This document shows, piece by piece, positions 3,378 through 22,675 of a stretch of DNA of 64,000 bases. The position numbers were made by a program, and so were the translations under genes. The notes beneath the pieces were generated by a model, which had not been told where the DNA came from, ran no database searches, and saw only the letters and a program-made list of their open reading frames with translations. The stretch covers positions 64,477 to 128,476 of the forward strand of contig CAZINT010000002.1 in the NCBI GenBank assembly GCA_964540825.1. The letters are read 5' to 3'. This DNA comes from an uncultured Gammaproteobacteria bacterium. Lineage in GTDB: Bacteria > Patescibacteriota > Patescibacteriia > Magasanikbacterales > GWA2-37-8. How positions within the stretch are numbered: position 1 is the stretch's first letter; each line of letters begins with the position of its first letter.

Positions 3378-6314
3378 ATGAAAACACTCAACACGGCCCA
3401 GCAGGAAGCGGTTGATTACGTCGGCGGCCCGCTGCTTATCGTAGCTGGAGCAGGAACCGGTAAAACGGCGGTAATTACCCAAAAAATAGCATCGCTCATT
3501 GAGCGCAAATTAGCGTTGCCTGAACAAGTTTTAGCGCTCACCTTTACTGATAAAGCCGCTGGAGAAATGCGCGAACGCGCAGACGCGTTGATCGGATCAA
3601 CCTATTCCTCGGTAGAAGTTTCAACTTTCCACTCATTTTGTCAGCGTATTCTGGAAGACTACGCTCTGGATATCGGTCTTCCAAATCGTTTTAAGCTTCT
3701 TACAACTACCGAAACATGGCTTCTTGTCCGCGAAAAATTGGATCGTTTTAAGCTTGATTACTATCGCCCGATGGCCAACCCGGAGCGGCATATCCATGAA
3801 CTCATTAAACACTTCAATAAATGTAAAGATGAGCTCGTTAGTCCGGAAGAATATTTGGCGCACGCTGAAAGTGTCGCCATGGAAGCCGGGGATACGAACG
3901 CGATTGAAAAAAATCGTTTATCTGAAGTTGCGAACGCGTACCATGTTTACAACCGGATACTGCTTGAAAATAACGCACTTGATTTTGGTGACTTATTATT
4001 CTATGTCATTAAACTGTTTCGTGAGCGCCCACACATTCTCTCTAAAATACAAAAACATTTTAAATTTATTCTTGTCGATGAATTCCAAGACGTTAATTGG
4101 GCACAGTATGTACTCGTTCGTCTCTTAGCCAACGATCAAAGTCAATTAACCGTGGTAGGGGATGATGACCAAAGTATTTACGCTTTTCGCGGGGCTTCAG
4201 TTTCCAATATTTTGCGTTTTAAAGACGATTTCCCAAATGCCAAAAATATTATTCTAACCAGTAACTACCGCTCTCAACAAATCATTCTTGATGCGGCATA
4301 TTGTCTCATCCAGAATAATAATCCCGATCGTCTTGAAGTTAAATTACAAATTGACAAACACTTAACTGCTGAGCTGCCCGTTACTGAAAAGGGCGTGATC
4401 GAACATATCAGCGTTGCTTCCGCCCACGACGAAGTCCGGGCTGTTTTAGAAAAAATAGCTGAACTCAAAAACCTTAATTCAGAAACAAAATGGTCAGACT
4501 TTGCAGTGTTGGCACGCGCTAACGGGCACCTTGAACCTTTTGTAGATGCGCTGGGGAAAGCTGGAATACCCTACGAATTTTTGGCTTCGAGCGGCCTGTA
4601 CAGTCAAAGCAGCATTTTAGATTGTCTTAATTTCTTTAAGGCCATAGTCAACAATCAGGATTCTACAGCTATCTATCGGCTTATTACCATGCCTTTTTTG
4701 CATTTGAGTGCCCATGATTTGCAGAAATTTACGTACCACGCCAAGAAAAAAAGTATTTCGTATGCAGAGGCGCTTAAACGGGCGCGTGAATTTGGTTTGT
4801 CGGAAGAGGGTGTTCAAACTATCGAGCGTGTCAGATCGTTTCTCAACGAAGGCGCTAAAGGAATAACAGCCAAAAAACCCTCCCTTTTGTTATTAGGTTT
4901 TCTTGACGCCAGCGGTTACAAACAATTTTTGGCCGACGAAGATATGGCCGGGCGTATGTCGATTAGCCGGCAGGCACTTCTCTTGACGCAGTTTTTGGAA
5001 GAAGTAATTGCTTATGAAATAGCTCACCCTGGCGAAGCGCATGTGGCCGGCTTTTTAGAACATTTCAACCACGTGGTTGAGTCAGGAGACGAAGGAAGTC
5101 TTAAGCAAAATCTTGATGTAGCGCACGAAGCTGTGCGAGTCATGACCGTGCACGCCTCAAAGGGTCTGGAATTTAAATATGTATTTGTAGTGAACGTTGT
5201 AGAAGAACGCTTTCCTACCCGCCGACGCGGGGAGGCAATCGAGTTACCTGCCGAACTGATTAAAGAACAGCTGCCGAGCGGAGATAGTCACTATGAAGAA
5301 GAGCGGCGTCTTATGTACGTAGCGGTTACACGCGCTAAAGACCGTTTGTACTGCACAAGCGCAAGTGACTACGGCGGCGTTCGAGCAAAAAAGGTGAGCC
5401 GATTTTTACATGAAATGAAGTGTGCGAATGGCGATGCGAAACTGTTTGTTCAAGAAAAGCCTGCGTTTATCGCTCCGGAACCAGAAAAAATAACCCCTTT
5501 TATATACGATACACCGGCCAGCTTTTCATTTTCGCAGCTTAAAAGCTACGAAACATGCCCGTATCAATACAAACTAGCCCACGTTATTAAAATCCCACAG
5601 CCAGCAGGGAACGCCAGCTTTAGCTTTGGGCAAACCATGCATAGCACCCTCCAAAAATTTTACGAACGCATGCAGGAATTGAATAGTTTAAAACAAGTGT
5701 CGCTTTTTAGCCAAGAACCAGCTCAAAAATCTGGCAATGAAATTAAAGTGCCGGCGTTTGAGGAACTCTTAAAAATATATGAGCAGGTTTGGATAGAGGA
5801 TTGGTACAAAGATAAAGCGCAGCGTGAAGAATATTACGCCAAAGGCAAAGAGATTTTAAGGACTTTTTATGCGAGTCATGAAGGAAAATGGAATGTACCA
5901 ATAACGCTCGAAGGCGGATTTAAGATTAAAGTCGGCGATTATCTTATTAATGGACGTATTGATCGCATTGATCAGTTGCCTGATGGCACCCTTGAAATCA
6001 TTGACTATAAAACCGGGAAACCCAAAGAAAAAATTGTTGGTAGCGATAAAGACCAGCTGCTTTTGTACCAAATCGCTACTGAAGAACTGCCTCAGTATCG
6101 TCATTTAGGTGCAACGCAAAAATTAACCTTTTATTATCTTAATGATAATAGCCAAATTTCTTTTGTCGGTTCAGAAAAAGAGCTTGCAACACTTAAGGAA
6201 AAATTAATTGAAACAATCAATCAGATTCGTTCTGGTGACTTTACTCCTACGCCAAGTACGTTTGTTTGCGGCAGCTGCCCCTATAAAGATATTTGTGCTT
6301 ATCGTGTACTATGA
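3378..6314 (+). CDS. UvrD/PcrA-family ATP-dependent helicase fused to a C-terminal PD-(D/E)XK Cas4/AddB-type Fe-S nuclease domain
   Basis: N-terminal MKTLNTAQQEAV...GAGTGKT (Walker A), DEFQD (Walker B), VVGDDDQSIYAFRGA; C-terminal GRIDRID...EIIDYKTGK nuclease motifs plus Cys set ETCPYQY ... CGSCPYKDIC typical of Fe-S RecB-like nucleases; ATG at 3378 chosen over the upstream TTG of the ORF track. Confidence 0.85.
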   Translation: MKTLNTAQQEAVDYVGGPLLIVAGAGTGKTAVITQKIASLIERKLALPEQVLALTFTDKAAGEMRERADALIGSTYSSVEVSTFHSFCQRILEDYALDIGLPNRFKLLTTTETWLLVREKLDRFKLDYYRPMANPERHIHELIKHFNKCKDELVSPEEYLAHAESVAMEAGDTNAIEKNRLSEVANAYHVYNRILLENNALDFGDLLFYVIKLFRERPHILSKIQKHFKFILVDEFQDVNWAQYVLVRLLANDQSQLTVVGDDDQSIYAFRGASVSNILRFKDDFPNAKNIILTSNYRSQQIILDAAYCLIQNNNPDRLEVKLQIDKHLTAELPVTEKGVIEHISVASAHDEVRAVLEKIAELKNLNSETKWSDFAVLARANGHLEPFVDALGKAGIPYEFLASSGLYSQSSILDCLNFFKAIVNNQDSTAIYRLITMPFLHLSAHDLQKFTYHAKKKSISYAEALKRAREFGLSEEGVQTIERVRSFLNEGAKGITAKKPSLLLLGFLDASGYKQFLADEDMAGRMSISRQALLLTQFLEEVIAYEIAHPGEAHVAGFLEHFNHVVESGDEGSLKQNLDVAHEAVRVMTVHASKGLEFKYVFVVNVVEERFPTRRRGEAIELPAELIKEQLPSGDSHYEEERRLMYVAVTRAKDRLYCTSASDYGGVRAKKVSRFLHEMKCANGDAKLFVQEKPAFIAPEPEKITPFIYDTPASFSFSQLKSYETCPYQYKLAHVIKIPQPAGNASFSFGQTMHSTLQKFYERMQELNSLKQVSLFSQEPAQKSGNEIKVPAFEELLKIYEQVWIEDWYKDKAQREEYYAKGKEILRTFYASHEGKWNVPITLEGGFKIKVGDYLINGRIDRIDQLPDGTLEIIDYKTGKPKEKIVGSDKDQLLLYQIATEELPQYRHLGATQKLTFYYLNDNSQISFVGSEKELATLKEKLIETINQIRSGDFTPTPSTFVCGSCPYKDICAYRVL

Positions 6315-7068: not shown

Positions 7069-8104
7069 AGTATTTGGACGTTTTAGAAAGGAACTGGGTA
7101 TTGATCTTGGAACCGCCAACACCCTTGTGTACGTCAAGGGCAGGGGAGTTGTTATCAACGAACCCAGTATTGTTGCAATTAACACCCGTACCGAACAGAT
7201 TTTGGCCGTGGGCAATGAAGCCAAGGAGATGCTGGGTAAAACCCCGCCGCACATTGTTACCACCCGCCCCTTAACTAACGGCATCATCTCGGATTTTGAA
7301 GTAGCTGAAAAAATGCTGCGCTATTTTATTGACAAAGTATACGAAGATACCGGCATGAGCTTTTTTTCAAAGCCAAAAGTCGTTATTGGCGCGCCGGTTA
7401 ATATTACTGAAGTAGAACGCAAAGCTATTGCCGACGCAATCATTAATGCCGGAGCGCGCGAAGTATGGATTGTCGAAGAGCCGATGGCTTCGGCGATCGG
7501 ATCGCGCATGCCTGCTCGCGACCCTATTGGCAACATGGTTATTGAAATAGGCGGGGGAACGACTGAAATTGCCGTTATATCGCTCAGCGGTATTGCTGCT
7601 AAAAAATCAATCAAAATTGCGGGTGACGAACTGAACCGCAACATCATTCAATACGCGCGTGATGTTTTTAAATTACTTTTAGGCGAGCGTCAGGCTGAAG
7701 AAATTAAAATAAAAATCGGTTCAGCGATTGAACTCTCTGAACCTATGGAATTTCCAATGCGCGGCCGTGATCTAGTAACTGGCCTGCCGCGCGAGGTAAT
7801 GATTAACGATTCGGAAGTCCGCGAGGCAATGATTAAATCGCTTCGAACAATCGTAGAAAGTATTAAGGCAACCCTGGAAATCACTCCGCCAGAACTTGTA
7901 GCCGATATCCATGAACGTGGTATTTTACTTTCCGGCGGGGGATCGCTCTTACGCGGTTTTGATCGCCTCATTGGTAAAGCCCTTGAAATCCCGGTTCGCA
8001 TTGCTGACGACCCGCTTACATCGGTTGTACGTGGTGCAGGAATATTACTCGATGAACCCGAACTTCTTCAGGAAGTGGCTGTCTGGCCAACTTCCCATAA
8101 ATAA
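7058..8104 (+). CDS. mreB: rod shape-determining protein MreB (actin homologue)
   Basis: GIDLGTANTLVYV, EPSIVA, IGGGTTEIAVISL phosphate/adenosine motifs of the actin/Hsp70 fold. Confidence 0.95.
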   Translation: MLPKVFGRFRKELGIDLGTANTLVYVKGRGVVINEPSIVAINTRTEQILAVGNEAKEMLGKTPPHIVTTRPLTNGIISDFEVAEKMLRYFIDKVYEDTGMSFFSKPKVVIGAPVNITEVERKAIADAIINAGAREVWIVEEPMASAIGSRMPARDPIGNMVIEIGGGTTEIAVISLSGIAAKKSIKIAGDELNRNIIQYARDVFKLLLGERQAEEIKIKIGSAIELSEPMEFPMRGRDLVTGLPREVMINDSEVREAMIKSLRTIVESIKATLEITPPELVADIHERGILLSGGGSLLRGFDRLIGKALEIPVRIADDPLTSVVRGAGILLDEPELLQEVAVWPTSHK

Positions 8105-16255: not shown

Positions 16256-16696
16256 ATGGATAACGTCTTTACACGCACCACAAAATCACTCATTAAAGAG
16301 TTTAAAGAATTTGCCATTAAAGGCAACGTCATAGATTTGGCTGTTGGTATTCTCATCGGCGGCGCTTTTGGAAAAATCGTGTCTTCATTGGTAGCCGATA
16401 TCATTACACCACTCCTTGGGCTCGCGCTCACAACTATTGATTTTAAAAACCTTGTTGTGATACTCAAGCCGGCAATGAACGGAAATCCGCCCCTGACACT
16501 CAACTACGGACTCTTTATTCAAAATCTAATAGATTTTGTTATCGTTTCTCTAGCTATTTTTGCAGTCGTCAAAGCAATTAATTCCTTCCGCAAAAAGAAA
16601 GAAGCGGCACCAGAGCCGCCCACCCCGCCCAAGCAAGAGCAATTACTTGCTGAAATTCGCGATATCCTTAAAGATACTAAAAAAATCCCGAGATAA
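16256..16696 (+). CDS. mscL: large-conductance mechanosensitive channel MscL
   Basis: FKEFAIKGNVIDLAVGILIGGAFGKIV signature; ATG at 16256 preferred over the longer ORF that overlaps serS. Confidence 0.9.
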   Translation: MDNVFTRTTKSLIKEFKEFAIKGNVIDLAVGILIGGAFGKIVSSLVADIITPLLGLALTTIDFKNLVVILKPAMNGNPPLTLNYGLFIQNLIDFVIVSLAIFAVVKAINSFRKKKEAAPEPPTPPKQEQLLAEIRDILKDTKKIPR

Positions 16697-17910: not shown

Positions 17911-18978
17911 ATGCAACGATTTGGACGACCAGAAACACGCTACAAAGCTCCTAAGAAGGGCCTGTTTTCTCGTGCCAAAAAGACCCCTGTCTATCGCTCT
18001 CGCCGCCATATTCGGCATGCCGCTGAACCCTTGGTATTTAACAATAAAGCACGCTTCAAGACCTATGGTGCCCCGGTAAAAATGACTGTTATCTGGAAAC
18101 GTTTCAAGCAATGCTTAGTACCCGTTCTTTTTTTGACCTGGTTTAGTTTACTTGTCTATCTGCCGTATTTTAAAGTAACCAACGTTGTTTTTTACGGCCT
18201 GCAGCTTATCAAGAAAGATGACGTTAACAGCTATGTTCAAAGTACAATTTTTAAAAATCGTGCTCTTTTGCCGGGAAATAACTATTTTTTCTTAAACCCC
18301 CGCAAAATAGAAGCTGAACTAGAAAAGAAATTTTCTGTAAGCTCCGTAACAGTTACCAAAGTGTTTCCTAACGAGATTCATATTGAACTAACAGAAAAAG
18401 TATCAACGATGATTTACGAAAACAATAAACAATATTTTTTACTTGATCAATCCGGCAACATTATTAAGTTCTTAGGCCAGGAGACACCGTCCGGATTTAG
18501 CACTTCCACCGAAAACAATCCGCTGGAGCAGCACAGCGCCATTGGCGTTGCTATGACCCCATCTAGCACATCGACTGTTCTTGACGCTTCTTCCACACTG
18601 CCAGTAGCTCCAGCACCCATTAAACCGCCCAACTTTCTAAAAATACGCAATCTTTTTGGCAACCTGCCCGTACTTCTTGATACAAGTTTTGTATCTTCTA
18701 CTGCGGGCGAGACAAATATTGTTCCAGCCGGCAGCATTGAGGGGGCGCTTGCTTTCGAGGAAATGATTGAAAAACGAGGCGTAGCCACAGTTCAATATTT
18801 TGAGCTTCAAGATCCTGGGGCGGGCATGGCGATACACACTACCCAGCCTTGGATAATCTATTTTCAGCCAAAGAACGATCTTGAAAGCCAATTTTCGAAC
18901 CTTAAAATGATACTGCAATCCAACCGTCCTACCCAATATATTGATCTAAGGTACGGCGAAAGAGTTTATTGGAAGTAA
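17911..18978 (+). CDS. ftsQ: cell division protein FtsQ/DivIB-like (POTRA domain)
   Basis: basic cytoplasmic N-terminus, single TM (LVPVLFLTWFSLLVYLPYF), POTRA-like segment VVFYGLQLIKKDDV ... EIHIELTEKV. Confidence 0.65.
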   Translation: MQRFGRPETRYKAPKKGLFSRAKKTPVYRSRRHIRHAAEPLVFNNKARFKTYGAPVKMTVIWKRFKQCLVPVLFLTWFSLLVYLPYFKVTNVVFYGLQLIKKDDVNSYVQSTIFKNRALLPGNNYFFLNPRKIEAELEKKFSVSSVTVTKVFPNEIHIELTEKVSTMIYENNKQYFLLDQSGNIIKFLGQETPSGFSTSTENNPLEQHSAIGVAMTPSSTSTVLDASSTLPVAPAPIKPPNFLKIRNLFGNLPVLLDTSFVSSTAGETNIVPAGSIEGALAFEEMIEKRGVATVQYFELQDPGAGMAIHTTQPWIIYFQPKNDLESQFSNLKMILQSNRPTQYIDLRYGERVYWK

Positions 18979-19250
18979 TTTTAGCTAATGTTAGCCAAAA
19001 ATTGACCCTTATGGGGTCTTTTTTGGTATTAAAGCCCTTATTTTTAGCCAAAATAGGGGATATAAGGTTAAAAAACAATGTCCAAAGTATTAAAACCGGA
19101 TAAATACTACAAATAAATATTTGGGAGCAGCATATAAAAGAATACACATAAGTAACAATTTATTCGACTAAAGCAAAAAGCTGACACCCGGCGCCGCATG
19201 CATCCAGGCGACGGTAGGGCCAGAAGGGAAGTGCTGTATTTTATAGGTTT

Positions 19251-19328
19251 AGGGGCATACTCTACGTCGTATAACATAGATTAAGCGACGTATTATAGAC
19301 CTTTTATTGGTAATAAAGACATGCCCCT
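19251..19328 (+). other. 78-nt element closed by a 8-9 bp long-range inverted repeat (AGGGGCAT ... ATGCCCCT) with two internal hairpins; function unknown
   Basis: outer arms 19251-19258 / 19321-19328; internal CGTCG...CGACG and CTTTTATT...AATAAAG stems give a three-way-junction-like layout; sits upstream of the promoter of the GC-rich lipoprotein gene. Confidence 0.3.
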
Positions 19329-19386: not shown

Positions 19387-19466
19387 TTGACAAAATCTGT
19401 ATTTAGTGTAAACCTATCTTTTGGACAAGTTTTGCCCAGCGTTTCAAACACTGTCTGATCAAGGAG
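19387..19466 (+). promoter_or_regulatory. promoter-like sequence and Shine-Dalgarno for the GC-rich lipoprotein gene
   Basis: -35 TTGACA at 19387-19392 (weak -10 around TAAACC), SD AAGGAG at 19461-19466 8 nt before ATG 19475. Confidence 0.4.
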
Positions 19467-19474
19467 CTATAATC

Positions 19475-19924
19475 ATGAACCGACTCGGAAACTTCCTCGC
19501 CGCAGCCGCCCTCACACTGCCCCTGTTCGGGTGCTACAACCCGGACCTGTCGTCGGGCAAGTTCCGTTGCGACAACAGCGCGCGCAGCTGCCCCGACGGG
19601 CAGGTGTGCTTGCCGTTCGCGAACCAGGGCCTGTTCTGCGTCAAGCCCCAGGAGTGCTGGCAGACGATGCTCGACTGCCAGCGCACGTGCCGCGACAGCG
19701 CCTGTTCGGCGATCTGCCGCAACATGGCGGTCAACGTGCAGAGCACGAGGATCGCCTTCAGCGTCTTCGCCGGCTGCATCGAGCAGCAGTGCCAGGGCAC
19801 CGCCCAGGGCAGCTCCAGCTGCGGGCCCGAGGCTGACGACCTGTCCTGCATCACCTGCATCCAGGACGTCTCGGCGGCCGGCGGCGCCTGCGCGGCCCAG
19901 GCCAAGACCTGCCTCACGAACTAG
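19475..19924 (+). CDS. Cys-rich secreted lipoprotein (149 aa) encoded in a GC-rich island (about 68% GC)
   Basis: signal peptide MNRLGNFLAAAALTLPLFGC with lipobox L-F-G-C; about 20 Cys in the mature part; strong GC3 codon bias unlike neighbouring genes; SD upstream. Confidence 0.7.
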   Translation: MNRLGNFLAAAALTLPLFGCYNPDLSSGKFRCDNSARSCPDGQVCLPFANQGLFCVKPQECWQTMLDCQRTCRDSACSAICRNMAVNVQSTRIAFSVFAGCIEQQCQGTAQGSSSCGPEADDLSCITCIQDVSAAGGACAAQAKTCLTN

Positions 19925-19950
19925 CCGCCCTCGCGCCGCGAGTTCGCCCC

Positions 19951-19980
19951 GGCGCACGACTCACCCTCGTGCGCCTTTAT
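19951..19980 (+). terminator. GC-rich hairpin terminator after the lipoprotein gene (first of two tandem hairpins)
   Basis: GGCGCACGA-ctcaccc-TCGTGCGCC followed by TTTAT. Confidence 0.6.
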
Positions 19981-19982
19981 CT

Positions 19983-20013
19983 AGAAGAGCTTAATGCATA
20001 GGCTCTTCTTTTA
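19983..20013 (+). terminator. second tandem terminator hairpin
   Basis: AGAAGAGC-12 nt-GCTCTTCT followed by TTTT. Confidence 0.6.
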
Positions 20014-20049
20014 GTTAAGGTCGCTTAATATTCACCTCACCCCCAAAAT

Positions 20050-21039
20050 ATGCTAGACTACTGGCATATGCAAAAATCTTCTACACCACTATTCAAACAC
20101 ATTCCTAATTTTCTTGATTACTGCGAAGTAGAAAAGGGCCTCTCCCCTACAACTACCAAAAATTATTACAACTTCCTCAAAATGTTTAAGGACTGGCTGG
20201 CTGACCAGTCCCTCACCAACCTTAAACCTCACGAACTCACGGCCGAACATATCTGGAATTACCGCCTCTACCTGTCGCGTAAAAAGGATAAAAAGACTAA
20301 TCAGCCCATCAAAAAAACCACCCAGAACTACTACCTTATCGCCTTGCGCAATCTGATGGCGTATTTTGCGACGCGGGATATCGTAGCCTTGCCAAGTGAC
20401 AAAATTCAACTCCCCAAATTAACTGAAAAAGAAAAACGAATTAAGTTCCTCAACTACGACCAGGTCAAAAAACTCATGACCATGCCGGATATGTCGACGA
20501 TCGAAGGCGTCCGAGATCGGGCAATCCTTGAGGTCCTCTTCTCTACCGGCATGCGTATCTCGGAGTTAACGTCGCTTAATATACGCCTCTTCGATATCCG
20601 CAATATTGTCGCTAAAAAAATTAAAGATTTGGAAATCAGTATTGCCGGTAAAGGCGGGTCGGTCCGCACCGTGTACTTCTCTACCGAAGCCCTTAATTGG
20701 CTCGGTAATTACCTTAAAACCCGCGTAAGCGACATGTACCCTCCCCTCTTTATTAACTACGCCAAAGCTCAAAAAGGCAGTGCTGAGCGTCGCCTGACCA
20801 CCCGCTCAATAGAGCGTGCTGTTAGGCGTTATGCTGGCATGGCCGGCCTCCCGGTTGACGCTACCCCGCATACCCTGCGCCACAGCTTCGCCACTGACCT
20901 TCTCGACCAGGGGGCGGACATGCGTTCGGTGCAGGAACTCTTGGGGCACAAAAATATTGTCACCACGCAGATTTATACGCATGTGACCAATAAAAAATTG
21001 CATGATGTACATGCAAAGTTTCATCGGGGGAATAAATAA
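20050..21039 (+). CDS. tyrosine site-specific recombinase, XerC/XerD family
   Basis: catalytic R (GMRISEL), H-x-x-R (HTLRHSFAT), H (LLGH), Y (TQIYTHV); C-terminal GADMRSVQELLGH...TTQIYTHV is typical of Xer recombinases. Confidence 0.85.
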   Translation: MLDYWHMQKSSTPLFKHIPNFLDYCEVEKGLSPTTTKNYYNFLKMFKDWLADQSLTNLKPHELTAEHIWNYRLYLSRKKDKKTNQPIKKTTQNYYLIALRNLMAYFATRDIVALPSDKIQLPKLTEKEKRIKFLNYDQVKKLMTMPDMSTIEGVRDRAILEVLFSTGMRISELTSLNIRLFDIRNIVAKKIKDLEISIAGKGGSVRTVYFSTEALNWLGNYLKTRVSDMYPPLFINYAKAQKGSAERRLTTRSIERAVRRYAGMAGLPVDATPHTLRHSFATDLLDQGADMRSVQELLGHKNIVTTQIYTHVTNKKLHDVHAKFHRGNK

Positions 21040-21044
21040 TTTGT

Positions 21045-21626
21045 ATGGAAGAAACTATTGTCTACTTTGTTCGGCATGCTAAGGCGCCATTTAGCCTAAA
21101 AAACTACCACGACAGGAGTTTGTCGGTTGAAGGCGAAGCAGCCGCTAAAAATCTGGTCAAAATTTTTGATTCTGTACCTGTTGATGTATTTGTTTCAAGT
21201 TCAAGTCCCCGAGCGGTTGAAACCATAAACCCCATTGCTTTGGCTAAAGGTAAGCCTATCGAAATGCACGACGAGCTGCGCGAGCTGCTCTTGCGAGGAT
21301 CTCAAACATTTATCGAGGAAGACAAAATTGAAGCTGAGATAGAAAAAGTTTTTGCTGATGAAAATTATAAATTAGTTGGAGGTGAAAGTGCTGCAGAAGT
21401 ACTTGGGCGTGGCCTACCTATTTTTCAAAAAATACTTGAGCAGCATGCAGGTAAATCTATTATTTTAGGAACACATGGTATCATTATGACCCTGCTACTA
21501 CAGAGTTTTGACTCAAGTACAGGGTTTAATTTTTGGAAAAAGACTACGAAGCCCGATGTGTATCGGGCGGTGTTTAGCGAAGGGAGAATGAAACAATTAG
21601 ATAGGTTTTTTAAGCAAGTAATTTAA
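21045..21626 (+). CDS. histidine phosphatase family protein (phosphoglycerate mutase-like / SixA-like)
   Basis: N-terminal VYFVRHAKA (RHG-type catalytic motif variant), later GTHG. Confidence 0.7.
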   Translation: MEETIVYFVRHAKAPFSLKNYHDRSLSVEGEAAAKNLVKIFDSVPVDVFVSSSSPRAVETINPIALAKGKPIEMHDELRELLLRGSQTFIEEDKIEAEIEKVFADENYKLVGGESAAEVLGRGLPIFQKILEQHAGKSIILGTHGIIMTLLLQSFDSSTGFNFWKKTTKPDVYRAVFSEGRMKQLDRFFKQVI

Positions 21627-21639
21627 TTTAAAAAACAAA

Positions 21640-21658
21640 AACGGTAACTTTTACCGTT
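21640..21658. terminator. bidirectional rho-independent terminator
   Basis: AAAAACAAAAACGGTAActtTTACCGTTTTTG; A-run and T-run flank an 8-bp stem. Confidence 0.8.
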
Positions 21659-21745
21659 TTTGAAAATAATTGCGATTCGCATTTGGTCTTGAACGCAATA
21701 AAGTCTCGAGTTAAAGCATCTAGTCCTCTTGCTCTAATAACTTAA

Positions 21746-21833
21746 TTATTTTTTTTTCTTCCTTGGCATTTTAATTTCACCTCCTTTCTTCTTAAGAAGA
21801 AACTAATATACCATATATACTTTTGTCAATCAA
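21746..21833 (-). other. compact unit on the minus strand just downstream of the AKR gene: promoter-like sequence, 18-bp perfect palindrome, strong SD, 7-codon ORF (MPRKKKK)
   Basis: -35 TTGATT, 17-nt spacer, extended -10 TGgTATATT; palindrome TTTCTTCTTAAGAAGAAA (21785-21802); SD AGGAGGTG 8 nt before ATG 21769; ORF ATG CCA AGG AAG AAA AAA AAA TAA ends 21746; the bidirectional terminator at 21640 lies about 100 nt downstream. Confidence 0.35.
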
Positions 21834-21847
21834 TCCATAATTTTATT

Positions 21848-22675
21848 TTAACCCAACTCACTCGGATCCCAGCACGTCCTAAAATCCTCATTCAAAGCAT
21901 CTAATCTCGCCATTTCCTCACCCGTCAACTCAAAATCAAACACCGCCAAGTTCTCCCCTATCCTCTCGGGGTTCGTTGACTTCGGCAAGATAATATTCCC
22001 ATGCTGGAGGCTCCAGCGGAGCATGACTTGGGCATTCGATTTACCATGTGCCTCGGCAATAGCGGTAATTACCTTATCTTTCTGACGTTCGCCGTGCGCG
22101 AGCGGGCTGTAGGCTTCGAGGGCAATATTGTTGCTTGCACAGTACTCAAGCAATTCTTTTTGATATAAAAATGGATGAAATTCTACCTGGTTCACCATAG
22201 GCATTACCTTCGCATACGTTTTCATTTCTTCAAGGTGTTTGATGGTGTAGTTCGATACGCCAATCGCCCGGCATTTCCCTGCCTGGTAGATTTCTTCGAG
22301 TGCTCGCCAGCTCTCTTGCCGGGTGCGCGGTTCTGGCCAGTGAATAATATACAGGTCAAGATAATCGAGCCCCAGTGCTTCTTTAGATTTTTCAAATGCA
22401 TCGAAGGCTTTTTCATAGCCCTGGTCCCCATTCCAGAGTTTGGTAGTTACGAAAATTTCGCTGCGTGGTACGCCGCTTTCCTGAATAGCCTCCCCTACCT
22501 CGCGTTCATTGCCATAAATCTTGGCCGTGTCGATATGGCGATACCCGGCGGCCAGGGCGGCAAGAACAGCATTTTTGACTTTGCTGCCTGTCGCCTTCCA
22601 GGTGCCCAGGGCAACAACGGGAATTTCGACGTTATTTGCTAGTTTTTTCTGGTGGTTCATACGGTTCGCGTTCAT
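21848..22675 (-). CDS. aldo/keto reductase (2,5-diketo-D-gluconate reductase-like)
   Basis: LGTWKATGS, AGYRHIDTAKIYGNE, IIHWPEP, GVSNY motifs of the AKR superfamily. Confidence 0.9.
   Translation of the reverse strand: MNANRMNHQKKLANNVEIPVVALGTWKATGSKVKNAVLAALAAGYRHIDTAKIYGNEREVGEAIQESGVPRSEIFVTTKLWNGDQGYEKAFDAFEKSKEALGLDYLDLYIIHWPEPRTRQESWRALEEIYQAGKCRAIGVSNYTIKHLEEMKTYAKVMPMVNQVEFHPFLYQKELLEYCASNNIALEAYSPLAHGERQKDKVITAIAEAHGKSNAQVMLRWSLQHGNIILPKSTNPERIGENLAVFDFELTGEEMARLDALNEDFRTCWDPSELG

Follow-up and report, generated by a model that had tools for sequence, protein, structure and literature searches.

Integrative mobile elements exploiting Xer (IMEX) carry no recombinase of their own and lie directly at a chromosomal dif site, with an intact dif on one side and, on the other, a dif-like site in which one arm is kept while the second arm and the centre diverge; a single locus can hold several such units side by side (PMC5357621; PMC9765430). 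In GGI and TLC, for instance, one arm of the dif-like site is conserved and the other is divergent (PMC5357621). Single-recombinase systems pair one recombinase gene with its site, and xerS directly adjoins difSL, the two forming one module (PMC5357621). The Legionella element LME-1 is described as carrying a mimic of the dif site and integrating in the single-recombinase dif/Xer system of XerL, and its stability is linked to a modified downstream dif site (PMC9765430). Here, we analyse a 64,000-nt stretch of a bacterial genome (contig CAZINT010000002.1 of assembly GCA_964540825.1; hereafter ‘the window’), in which a gene for a cysteine-rich lipoprotein lies between a candidate dif site and a gene for an Xer-type tyrosine recombinase. 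We call this 149-aa lipoprotein gene F1, and use F2 and F3 for the other cargo families found in related genomes. On balance, we favour the reading that F1 is old cargo, fixed in the dif/xer module by an IMEX-like integration. The features on which this reading turns are as follows.

19264–19291, no strand assigned: candidate dif site, the 28-mer ACGTCGTATAA-CATAGA-TTAAGCGACGT, in an 11-6-11 layout with arms inverted at 9 of 11 positions.
19475–19924, plus strand: F1, with ATG at 19475 and TAG at 19922–19924 (149 aa plus stop).
20018–20045, no strand assigned: degenerate dif half-site AGGTCGCTTAA-TATTCA-CCTCACCCCCA, its arm (20018–20028) matching the dif arm at 10 of 11 positions.
20068–21039, plus strand: xer, encoding an Xer-type tyrosine recombinase; the longest open reading frame (ORF) runs from 20050, and M7 is the likely true start.

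In layout, the locus resembles IMEX (PMC5357621; PMC9765430). The cargo has no recombinase gene, begins at the base after the 28-mer, and is flanked by that site and by a dif-like remnant (19264–19291 and 20018–20045) with one arm kept and a divergent second arm and centre; the slot can also hold several units side by side. It differs from IMEX in that the cargo is tiny and has no replication, transfer, or phage genes, is fixed across a clade in which neither a free form nor an empty site was seen, and resides in a patescibacterium whose xer apparently lies beside dif; moreover, the cargo ORFs, unlike their spacers, are far richer in GC than the host. Acinetobacter pdif modules and integron cassettes are likewise small one- or two-gene units bounded by sites, with the tyrosine recombinase encoded outside the unit. 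However, pdif modules are plasmid-borne and have full, inverted sites, whereas the F1 cargo lies between a chromosomal dif and a direct half-site, and integron cassettes are promoterless, carry attC hairpins, and need IntI, whereas F1 has its own conserved −35 box and Shine–Dalgarno (SD) sequence. The locus combines known kinds, an IMEX-like slot and an xer-beside-dif module, with an orphan lipoprotein family and an unusual compositional puzzle.

As in the modules XerS/difSL, XerH/difH, XerA, and XerL, gene and site appear to form one unit located at the terminus, and in an outgroup genome (L006) the 28-mer lies 6 nt 5′ of the xer ATG, within an 80-nt spacer. The product of xer matches Pfam Phage_integrase (2.6e-38) and a SAM-like N-terminal domain, in agreement with the first-pass annotation, which had placed F1 next to a recombinase gene of the Xer family. 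Against the NCBIfam models, it scores 224 bits for XerC (cut-off 335), 221 for XerD (cut-off 330), 188 for XerA, and 119 for XerS (cut-off 267); it falls below every equivalog cut-off and is a generic relative of XerC, XerD, and XerA. It therefore differs both from XerS, in its best-scoring models, and from canonical XerC/XerD, whose cut-offs it does not reach; no second xer was found in the 64-kb window. The site, at 28 bp with a 6-nt centre as in canonical dif, is likewise unlike difSL, which has 31 bp and an 11-bp centre. Integron integrase models gave 102 and 70 bits (cut-offs 265 and 435). Most likely, the recombinase is the housekeeping Xer of dimer resolution and not an island integrase. 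Its orthologues begin at MQKSS.

We consider it quite probable that the 28-mer is dif, because of its invariance, its 11-6-11 architecture, its adjacency to xer in the outgroup, its position relative to GC skew and gene orientation, and a breakpoint found at it. The sequence is unique in the window and 100% identical in the window and in the related loci L009, L011, L012, and L013, genomes with FtsQ proteins 58–83% identical and with saturated fourfold degenerate sites; in L006, 26 of 28 positions agree. The spacer around it is poorly conserved and barely alignable. It also matches the dif sequence of Bacillus subtilis at 18 of 28 positions. It lies between the maximum of cumulative GC skew (16.4 kb; position 16394) and a gene-strand switch at 21.7 kb (21626–21848), where 19 plus-strand genes give way to 11 minus-strand genes, and these features of composition and gene order indicate that the window probably spans the replication terminus. 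Over 3007 nt from base 1 of the 28-mer, the JGI contig L016 agrees with L012 at 100%, and immediately to the left the two are unrelated, so that L016 is a natural recombinant whose breakpoint falls on the 28-mer; this join shows the 28-mer active as a site, not movement of F1. A literature search on dif/Xer in the candidate phyla radiation found no paper, and the locus offers a concrete, testable candidate for the dimer-resolution site of a candidate-phyla bacterium, beside its recombinase and caught as a natural breakpoint.

The DNA to the left of the 28-mer varies as well. In L016 (JGI sample 3300045392), positions 1–1169 are low-GC DNA with a PDDEXK_11 nuclease ORF and an 84-aa ORF, the corresponding positions 1–2125 of L012 hold ftsQ and a 122-aa cysteine-containing ORF, and a further contig, L018, parts from L012 101 nt left of the 28-mer. 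Judging from these contigs, the left side of dif is likewise a variable slot.

The age of the cargo follows from related genomes. In L009 (metagenome-assembled genome [MAG] GCA_964510495.1), with backbone DNA 78% identical to that of the window, a gene for the F1 homologue P0001 (GC 0.65) occupies the identical slot between an FtsQ-like gene and xer. Three further loci, L011, L012, and L013, were reached via FtsQ homologues, and the interval always consists of high-GC ORFs and AT-rich spacers. The cargo of the five lineages, with GC content at third codon positions (GC3) in the order of the genes, is as follows.

Window: F1, GC3 0.95.
L009: F1, GC3 0.86.
L012: F2 (small lipoprotein, minus strand) and F1, GC3 0.82 and 0.91.
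L011: F2 and F3 (membrane protein), GC3 0.68 and 0.66.
L013: F1 and F3, GC3 0.60 and 0.61.

The cargo measures 0.73 kb in the window and 1.2–1.6 kb in the relatives, and no version contains a recombinase ORF. Since the sets F1, F1, F2+F1, F2+F3, and F1+F3 all fit one ancestral order, that order was probably F2-F1-F3, followed by differential loss. Homologues of F1 occur in L009, L012, and L013, in every case between ftsQ and xer, and none was found elsewhere; their identity to the window protein (41%, 34%, and 24%) tracks the identity of the host FtsQ proteins (83%, 66%, and 58%). The context of the −35 box, the SD sequence, and both 3′ hairpins are homologous between the F1 loci. In L006 (FtsQ 32% and Xer 74% identical), 80 nt separate ftsQ and xer, with no cargo.

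Because same-slot homologues occur in three lineages with saturated synonymous sites in the backbone, F1 is old in the clade and not a strain-specific island. The first-pass annotation had implied such an island, and recent transfer from a high-GC donor, with the neighbouring recombinase acting as island integrase, does have points in its favour: a GC3 of 0.95 with a sharp step in composition, an N-terminal module that F1 has in common with lipoproteins on high-GC contigs, and the adjoining recombinase gene itself. The sister loci nevertheless largely refute it, given that slot, promoter box, and hairpins recur in L009, L012, and L013 with identities of 24–41% that track host divergence; in addition, the databases hold no donor homologue, and the recombinase is kept in the cargo-free outgroup with the site directly upstream. 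We regard a recent, strain-specific arrival as very unlikely. Homologues in sister genomes, which the annotation had expected to show backbone-like GC if the gene were ancestral, do exist, but their composition is not backbone-like (GC3 0.86, 0.91, and 0.60).

The right end of the cargo carries the second flank. The half-site differs from dif in its central region, and its second arm is unrelated. The motif A[CG]GTCG[CT]TTAATATTCA followed by TATTCA (window 20018–20034) stands at this end in all five cargo-bearing lineages and is absent from L006. The search for Xer core sites that the first-pass annotation had suggested was thus rewarded, with the dif-like 28-mer (19264–19291) on one side of F1 and the half-site arm (20018–20028) on the other. 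Of the 10-mer GTCGCTTAAT, the window contains three copies, all at this locus, against an expectation of 0.09. Two matches to the 17-mer half-site in viral contigs were dismissed as chance, xer being absent from both, and the dif 28-mer was not found in viral contigs. A further copy of the arm lies within the recombinase gene.

20569–20579 (context 20564–20589), plus strand: exact dif-arm copy ACGTCGCTTAA inside the xer coding sequence.

Six xer genes, that of the outgroup among them, have this copy unchanged even at synonymous positions, and the 26 nt around it match the half-site region (20013–20038) with three mismatches; it may be an auto-regulatory or a recombination half-site. In L019, a contig of the L012 lineage, identity stops inside xer (L012 position 4062), and positions 5183–5952 hold an Xer cut short at 200 aa and then sequence unrelated to it, which could be due to an insertion or an assembly join.

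Most likely, a high-GC block encoding the F2 lipoprotein, the F1 lipoprotein, and the F3 membrane protein would have been captured between dif and the adjacent xer when Xer integrated an element lacking its own recombinase, much as IMEX are integrated. Such an integration would have left the intact dif (19264–19291) on the far side of the cargo from xer and beside xer a half-site (20018–20045), since decayed, with a different central region, and the mismatch between the central regions would lock the cargo in. Vertical inheritance and differential gene loss would have followed, F1 being the surviving part of the block in the window, where it would be transcribed from a local AT-rich promoter and end at two conserved hairpins. 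A foreign origin is supported by the occurrence of the N-terminal module on high-GC contigs and by the GC richness of second codon positions (GC2) and of the 3′ untranslated region (UTR) of F1. We infer both catalysis by Xer and an IMEX-type origin from this arrangement; as to integration as the origin of the cargo, we lean slightly towards it. The locus suggests that Xer-exploiting integration shapes these tiny genomes too.

Several observations weigh against this account. Among about 15 billion proteins, no full-length donor homologue of F1 was found. Within the cargo-bearing clade, no empty site was seen, as all five lineages carry cargo and only the distant outgroup is empty; neither an excised circle nor a free element with attP was found, so that mobility of the cargo is not shown, and viral, plasmid, and phage collections contained no copy of it. 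The half-site, which overlaps a putative xer promoter (TTCACC-17-TAGACT) and resembles the sequence inside xer, could be an operator instead of an integration scar. Simple transfer of a block from a high-GC donor would not be expected to give AT-rich intergenic parts with a GC step located exactly at the ATG. Finally, GC3 is 0.86–0.95 in three lineages and 0.60–0.68 in the other two, where vertical descent would lead one to expect decay.

The composition of F1 deserves a closer look. Its GC content is 0.68 (0.54, 0.55, and 0.95 at the first, second, and third codon positions) in a window with GC 0.445, and it is the sole stretch above about 0.62 (200-nt windows; mean 0.445, standard deviation 0.056). 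In 60-nt windows, GC rises abruptly from 0.37–0.45 to more than 0.63 at the F1 ATG and drops after about 19975. At third positions, C accounts for 62%, G for 34%, A for 3%, and T for 2%, and TGC serves for 16 of the 17 cysteine codons. Among the real ORFs of the window, F1 alone has a GC3 of at least 0.75, the neighbouring genes having values of 0.34–0.56, so the GC3-rich codon usage that had been called foreign to the backbone is indeed so. The window contains no silent or paralogous copies of F1 and no tRNA or Rfam elements as integration targets. In each of the four F1 genes, the first 25 codons (19475–19549 in the window) have a lower GC3 (0.84, 0.60, 0.80, and 0.48) than the remainder, as might be expected if selection in the present host favoured weak mRNA structure around the start codon.

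Between the window and L009, flanking proteins are 74–93% identical, but their fourfold sites only 28–51%, which is near saturation, as is the fourfold identity of 28–39% in more distant lineages. A fourfold identity of 0.38 corresponds to a Jukes–Cantor distance of about 1.3 per pair, as a lower bound. By a rough two-state estimate with a host GC3 equilibrium of about 0.41, an inherited value of 0.95 would have fallen to about 0.6 since the split of the window and L009 lineages, and lower for older splits. Three explanations for the observed excess were discarded. Translational optimization fails because seven genes for ribosomal proteins and RpoA have a GC3 of 0.40–0.46 and prefer GCT, GGT, GTT, GAA, and AAA, all A/T-ending codons; regional GC-biased gene conversion near dif is unsupported, as neither ftsQ nor xer shows a GC3 gradient and the spacers are AT-rich; and adenine-specific mutagenesis of the diversity-generating retroelement type is contradicted by the equal depletion of A and T at third positions (3% and 2%).

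The composition would be accounted for if F1-type genes had come in repeatedly from a high-GC reservoir. The slot would then be a conserved expression site beside dif, into which F1-type ORFs are re-imported or converted again and again from an unsampled source such as the bacterial host of these putative episymbionts. A GC3 of 0.86–0.95 next to a saturated backbone suits this idea, in that high GC3 would mean recent residence elsewhere, and so do the flanks, especially 19951–20147, which is 89% identical between the window and L009 (backbone 78%) around an ORF that cannot be aligned at the DNA level; the dif site is demonstrably recombinogenic, and several assemblies break at the F1 locus. 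However, no full-length homologue turned up in any high-GC genome or metagenome searched, and replacement of the ORF alone would require homology at its ends, whereas relatives outside the clade have only the N-terminal 35 aa in common with F1. The F1 identities follow host phylogeny, the AT-rich regulatory DNA is shared, and the intermediate GC3 (0.60–0.68) of the cargo in L011 and L013 is what decay in place predicts. These points argue against repeated import, which we consider improbable.

Alternatively, F1, F2, and F3 could be native, clade-specific, fast-evolving surface genes that happen to lie near dif, with no mobile element involved and with GC-rich codons owed to mutational bias or to selection, for example on mRNA structure and stability or for deliberately non-optimal codons. 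The pattern of vertical descent accords with a native gene, as do the restriction of GC enrichment to the ORF and 3′ UTR (the 5′ UTR and intergenic DNA being AT-rich), the GC3 dip in the first 25 codons of the four homologues, as if adapted to local translation initiation, and the failure to find the family outside the clade. It is harder to reconcile with the outgroup, where dif abuts xer with no room for cargo, while in the cargo-bearing clade the arm is duplicated at the opposite end, and this is the trace that site-specific integration classically leaves. The N-terminal module links F1 to high-GC bacteria, GC2 is elevated too, flanking genes have no GC3 gradient, and the preference of host ribosomal protein genes for A/T-ending codons excludes translational optimization. 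A native origin therefore seems rather unlikely to us, and the IMEX-like capture remains the reading that we prefer.

The extreme composition of F1 is real, and its maintenance is a puzzle under that reading. Vertical descent, to which gene order, identities that follow phylogeny, and common regulatory sequences all point, would require some force restricted to the ORF, and we propose only tentatively that such a force keeps the cargo at about 90% GC3 in a 44% GC genome while the adjoining non-coding DNA stays AT-rich. Selection might act on mRNA or codons; a targeted, GC-biased process of mutation or conversion might be at work and drive protein divergence as well; or the ORFs might be re-imported continually from the high-GC host of the symbiont. 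To our knowledge, none of these forces has been described for bacteria of this kind. An extreme GC3 that persists against host mutation offers a test case for amelioration, codon-level selection, and biased conversion.

The public gene calls for the contig (NCBI, 248,779 nt; Logan) place a hypothetical 184-aa ORF at 19403–19957 on the minus strand, across F1. Codon-position GC and lack of conservation rule it out as a gene: its GC peaks at codon position 1 (0.88–0.95), its GC3 is 0.55, and it is interrupted in L009. Since coding periodicity, the signal peptide and lipobox, and the conserved cysteine scaffold are all in the plus frame, the real gene is almost certainly the plus-strand F1, in keeping with the first-pass annotation, which had described a cysteine-rich protein with a lipoprotein signal and an LFGC lipobox. 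An exact-sequence look-up gave no match because the public call is on the wrong strand, and relatives miscalled in the same way would be absent from protein databases. Besides correcting this annotation, the analysis yields three orphan protein families, whose members are secreted or lie in the membrane.

That the island is an artefact, either a chimeric or contaminant high-GC stretch or one in which the minus-strand ORF is the real gene, is extremely improbable. Both NCBI and Logan do annotate the ORF at 19403–19957, and one assembly breaks inside the island. Yet window positions 7911–28978 recur at 100% identity in a 26-kb Logan contig from SRR11567520, and two Logan contigs from SRR11567528, overlapping by 27 nt inside the island, span both F1 junctions; two assemblies thus agree on the junctions at 100%, and five further data sets contain homologous loci. 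Together with the codon-position evidence and the plus-frame features above, these data already refute an artefact.

The F1 protein begins with MNRLGNFLAAAALTLPLFGC, in which a basic n-region and a hydrophobic core lead up to the lipobox L-F-G-C. By pattern inspection ([LVI][ASTVI][GAS]C after a positive n-region and hydrophobic h-region), it has the lipoprotein form MNR-LGNFLAAAALTLPLF-G-C, with an atypical F at −2 and P at −4. The signal peptide MNRLGNFLAAAALTLPLFG precedes the lipobox cysteine, the lipobox being L17-F18-G19-C20; signal and lipobox are encoded at 19475–19534, and the mature protein runs from C20 to N149. The homologues have the canonical lipoboxes LVAGC, GVSGC, and LVAGC. 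Cysteine richness is confirmed, but the count of about 20 given in the first-pass annotation is too high: there are 17, of which 16 follow the predicted lipidated residue (positions 20, 32, 39, 45, 55, 61, 68, 72, 77, 81, 101, 106, 116, 125, 128, 139, and 146). All 17 are invariant between F1 and P0001, and 12 are invariant over the four homologues.

No profile, sequence, or fold match was obtained for F1 in Pfam, NCBIfam, PHROG, or PDB, and a word-indexed protein search found no homologue. An exhaustive phmmer search of 1.84e9 cluster representatives returned one full-length relative, P0001 (E = 2.9e-22, 41% identity, 147 aa), and the 241-aa P0002, which has in common with F1 the first ~35 mature residues only. 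A four-sequence F1 profile run against 5.8e9 proteins retrieved P0001 and P0021 only, and JGI metagenomes, IMG/VR, and phage and plasmid collections contained no further full-length homologue. The family is shown to be confined to a single patescibacterial clade (Magasanikiibacteriota-like).

The N-terminal module, CY.P...SG.[FY].C....CPDGQ.C, is also found in lipoproteins encoded by two high-GC contigs, one at 70% GC and the other, which is phage-like, at 62%. In these proteins of high-GC bacteria (the P0002 cluster; JGI contig Ga0073934_10087962), as in F1, the lipobox cysteine is followed by Y-x-P-x3-SG-x-[FY]-x-C-x5,6-CPDGQ-x-C, with 48–51% identity to F1 over ~35 residues; unlike them, F1 has a helical, cysteine-rich C-terminal domain (residues ~57–149) with no relative outside the clade. 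On L014, a Logan contig (SRR14092371, 62% GC), the P0002/P0004 cluster stands amid ~25 small co-oriented ORFs, a helix-turn-helix protein, and a sigma-70 region 4 protein, a gene content that suggests phage or prophage DNA from a high-GC bacterium.

A first AlphaFold2 model of F1 was too poor to keep (pLDDT 49). In a model from three sequences (pLDDT 63), a helical cysteine-rich domain comes after a small beta-hairpin module, and a Foldseek search with this model against PDB gave nothing significant (best E-value 4.6). By its sequence features, F1 would be a small extracytoplasmic lipoprotein, anchored in the membrane and rich in disulfides, and it belongs to a family not described before. Its very fast evolution outside the cysteine scaffold suggests a surface or interaction protein, possibly under diversifying pressure. 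As clade-specific and fast-evolving proteins, F1, F2, and F3 are plausible participants in the cell-surface biology of episymbionts.

The expression signals of F1 are the following.

19387–19392, plus strand: −35 box, exact TTGACA, read from the sequence, with a weak −10 ~16 nt downstream.
19461–19466, plus strand: Shine–Dalgarno sequence AAGGAG, 8 nt 5′ of the ATG.
19951–19975, plus strand: GC-rich 3′ hairpin GGCGCACGA-CTCACCC-TCGTGCGCC, conserved in L009, L012, and L013 with compensatory changes.
19983–20009, plus strand: second hairpin with T-run, of the intrinsic terminator type and of host-like composition.

The TTGACA box and SD sequence reported in the first-pass annotation are both present. 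The context of the box, ‘cattgacaaaat’, is kept upstream of the homologues in L009 and L012, as is the SD sequence ‘caaggag’, while the remaining spacer is unalignable; the promoter scanner called no full sigma-70 promoter for F1, its −10 being weak. Of the two tandem GC-rich hairpin terminators described there, both hairpins exist, but only the first is GC-rich. The 3′ hairpin region has a folding z-score of −5.3, and covariation is seen in 4 of 19 hairpin pairs over four genomes.

Around the slot, the window carries mreB, mreC, the PBP2 gene, greA, several aminoacyl-tRNA synthetase genes, mscL, alr, and the FtsQ-like gene, and then xer and a histidine phosphatase gene; the nearest labelled genomes are those of Candidatus Magasanikiibacteriota (Patescibacteria/Parcubacteria group). 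Two closer MAGs titled ‘uncultured Gammaproteobacteria bacterium’ (L004, L005, L007, L009, and L013; CAZWKA01 and CAZECR01) are syntenic with the window and are probably mislabelled. One of them, CAZWKA01, has two xer contigs (97% and 98% identity) and an FtsQ only 57% identical, and appears to mix strains or species. Several contigs of these assemblies stop at the cargo or at the 5′ end of xer. The ftsQ terminator hairpin (19004–19018) is flanked by TTAGC[CT]AA(AA), present three times at 18976–19052; these copies are kept in the window, L009, L011, and L013, unlike the rest of the spacer. At 19183–19221, to the left of dif, a short patch of ~60% GC interrupts a spacer that otherwise has 25–35% GC; it is partly kept in L011 and L013, one of its frames (..GAACIQATV..) bears a faint likeness to the F1 C-terminus (CITCIQDV), and it could represent a remnant or else a small element with a structure of its own.

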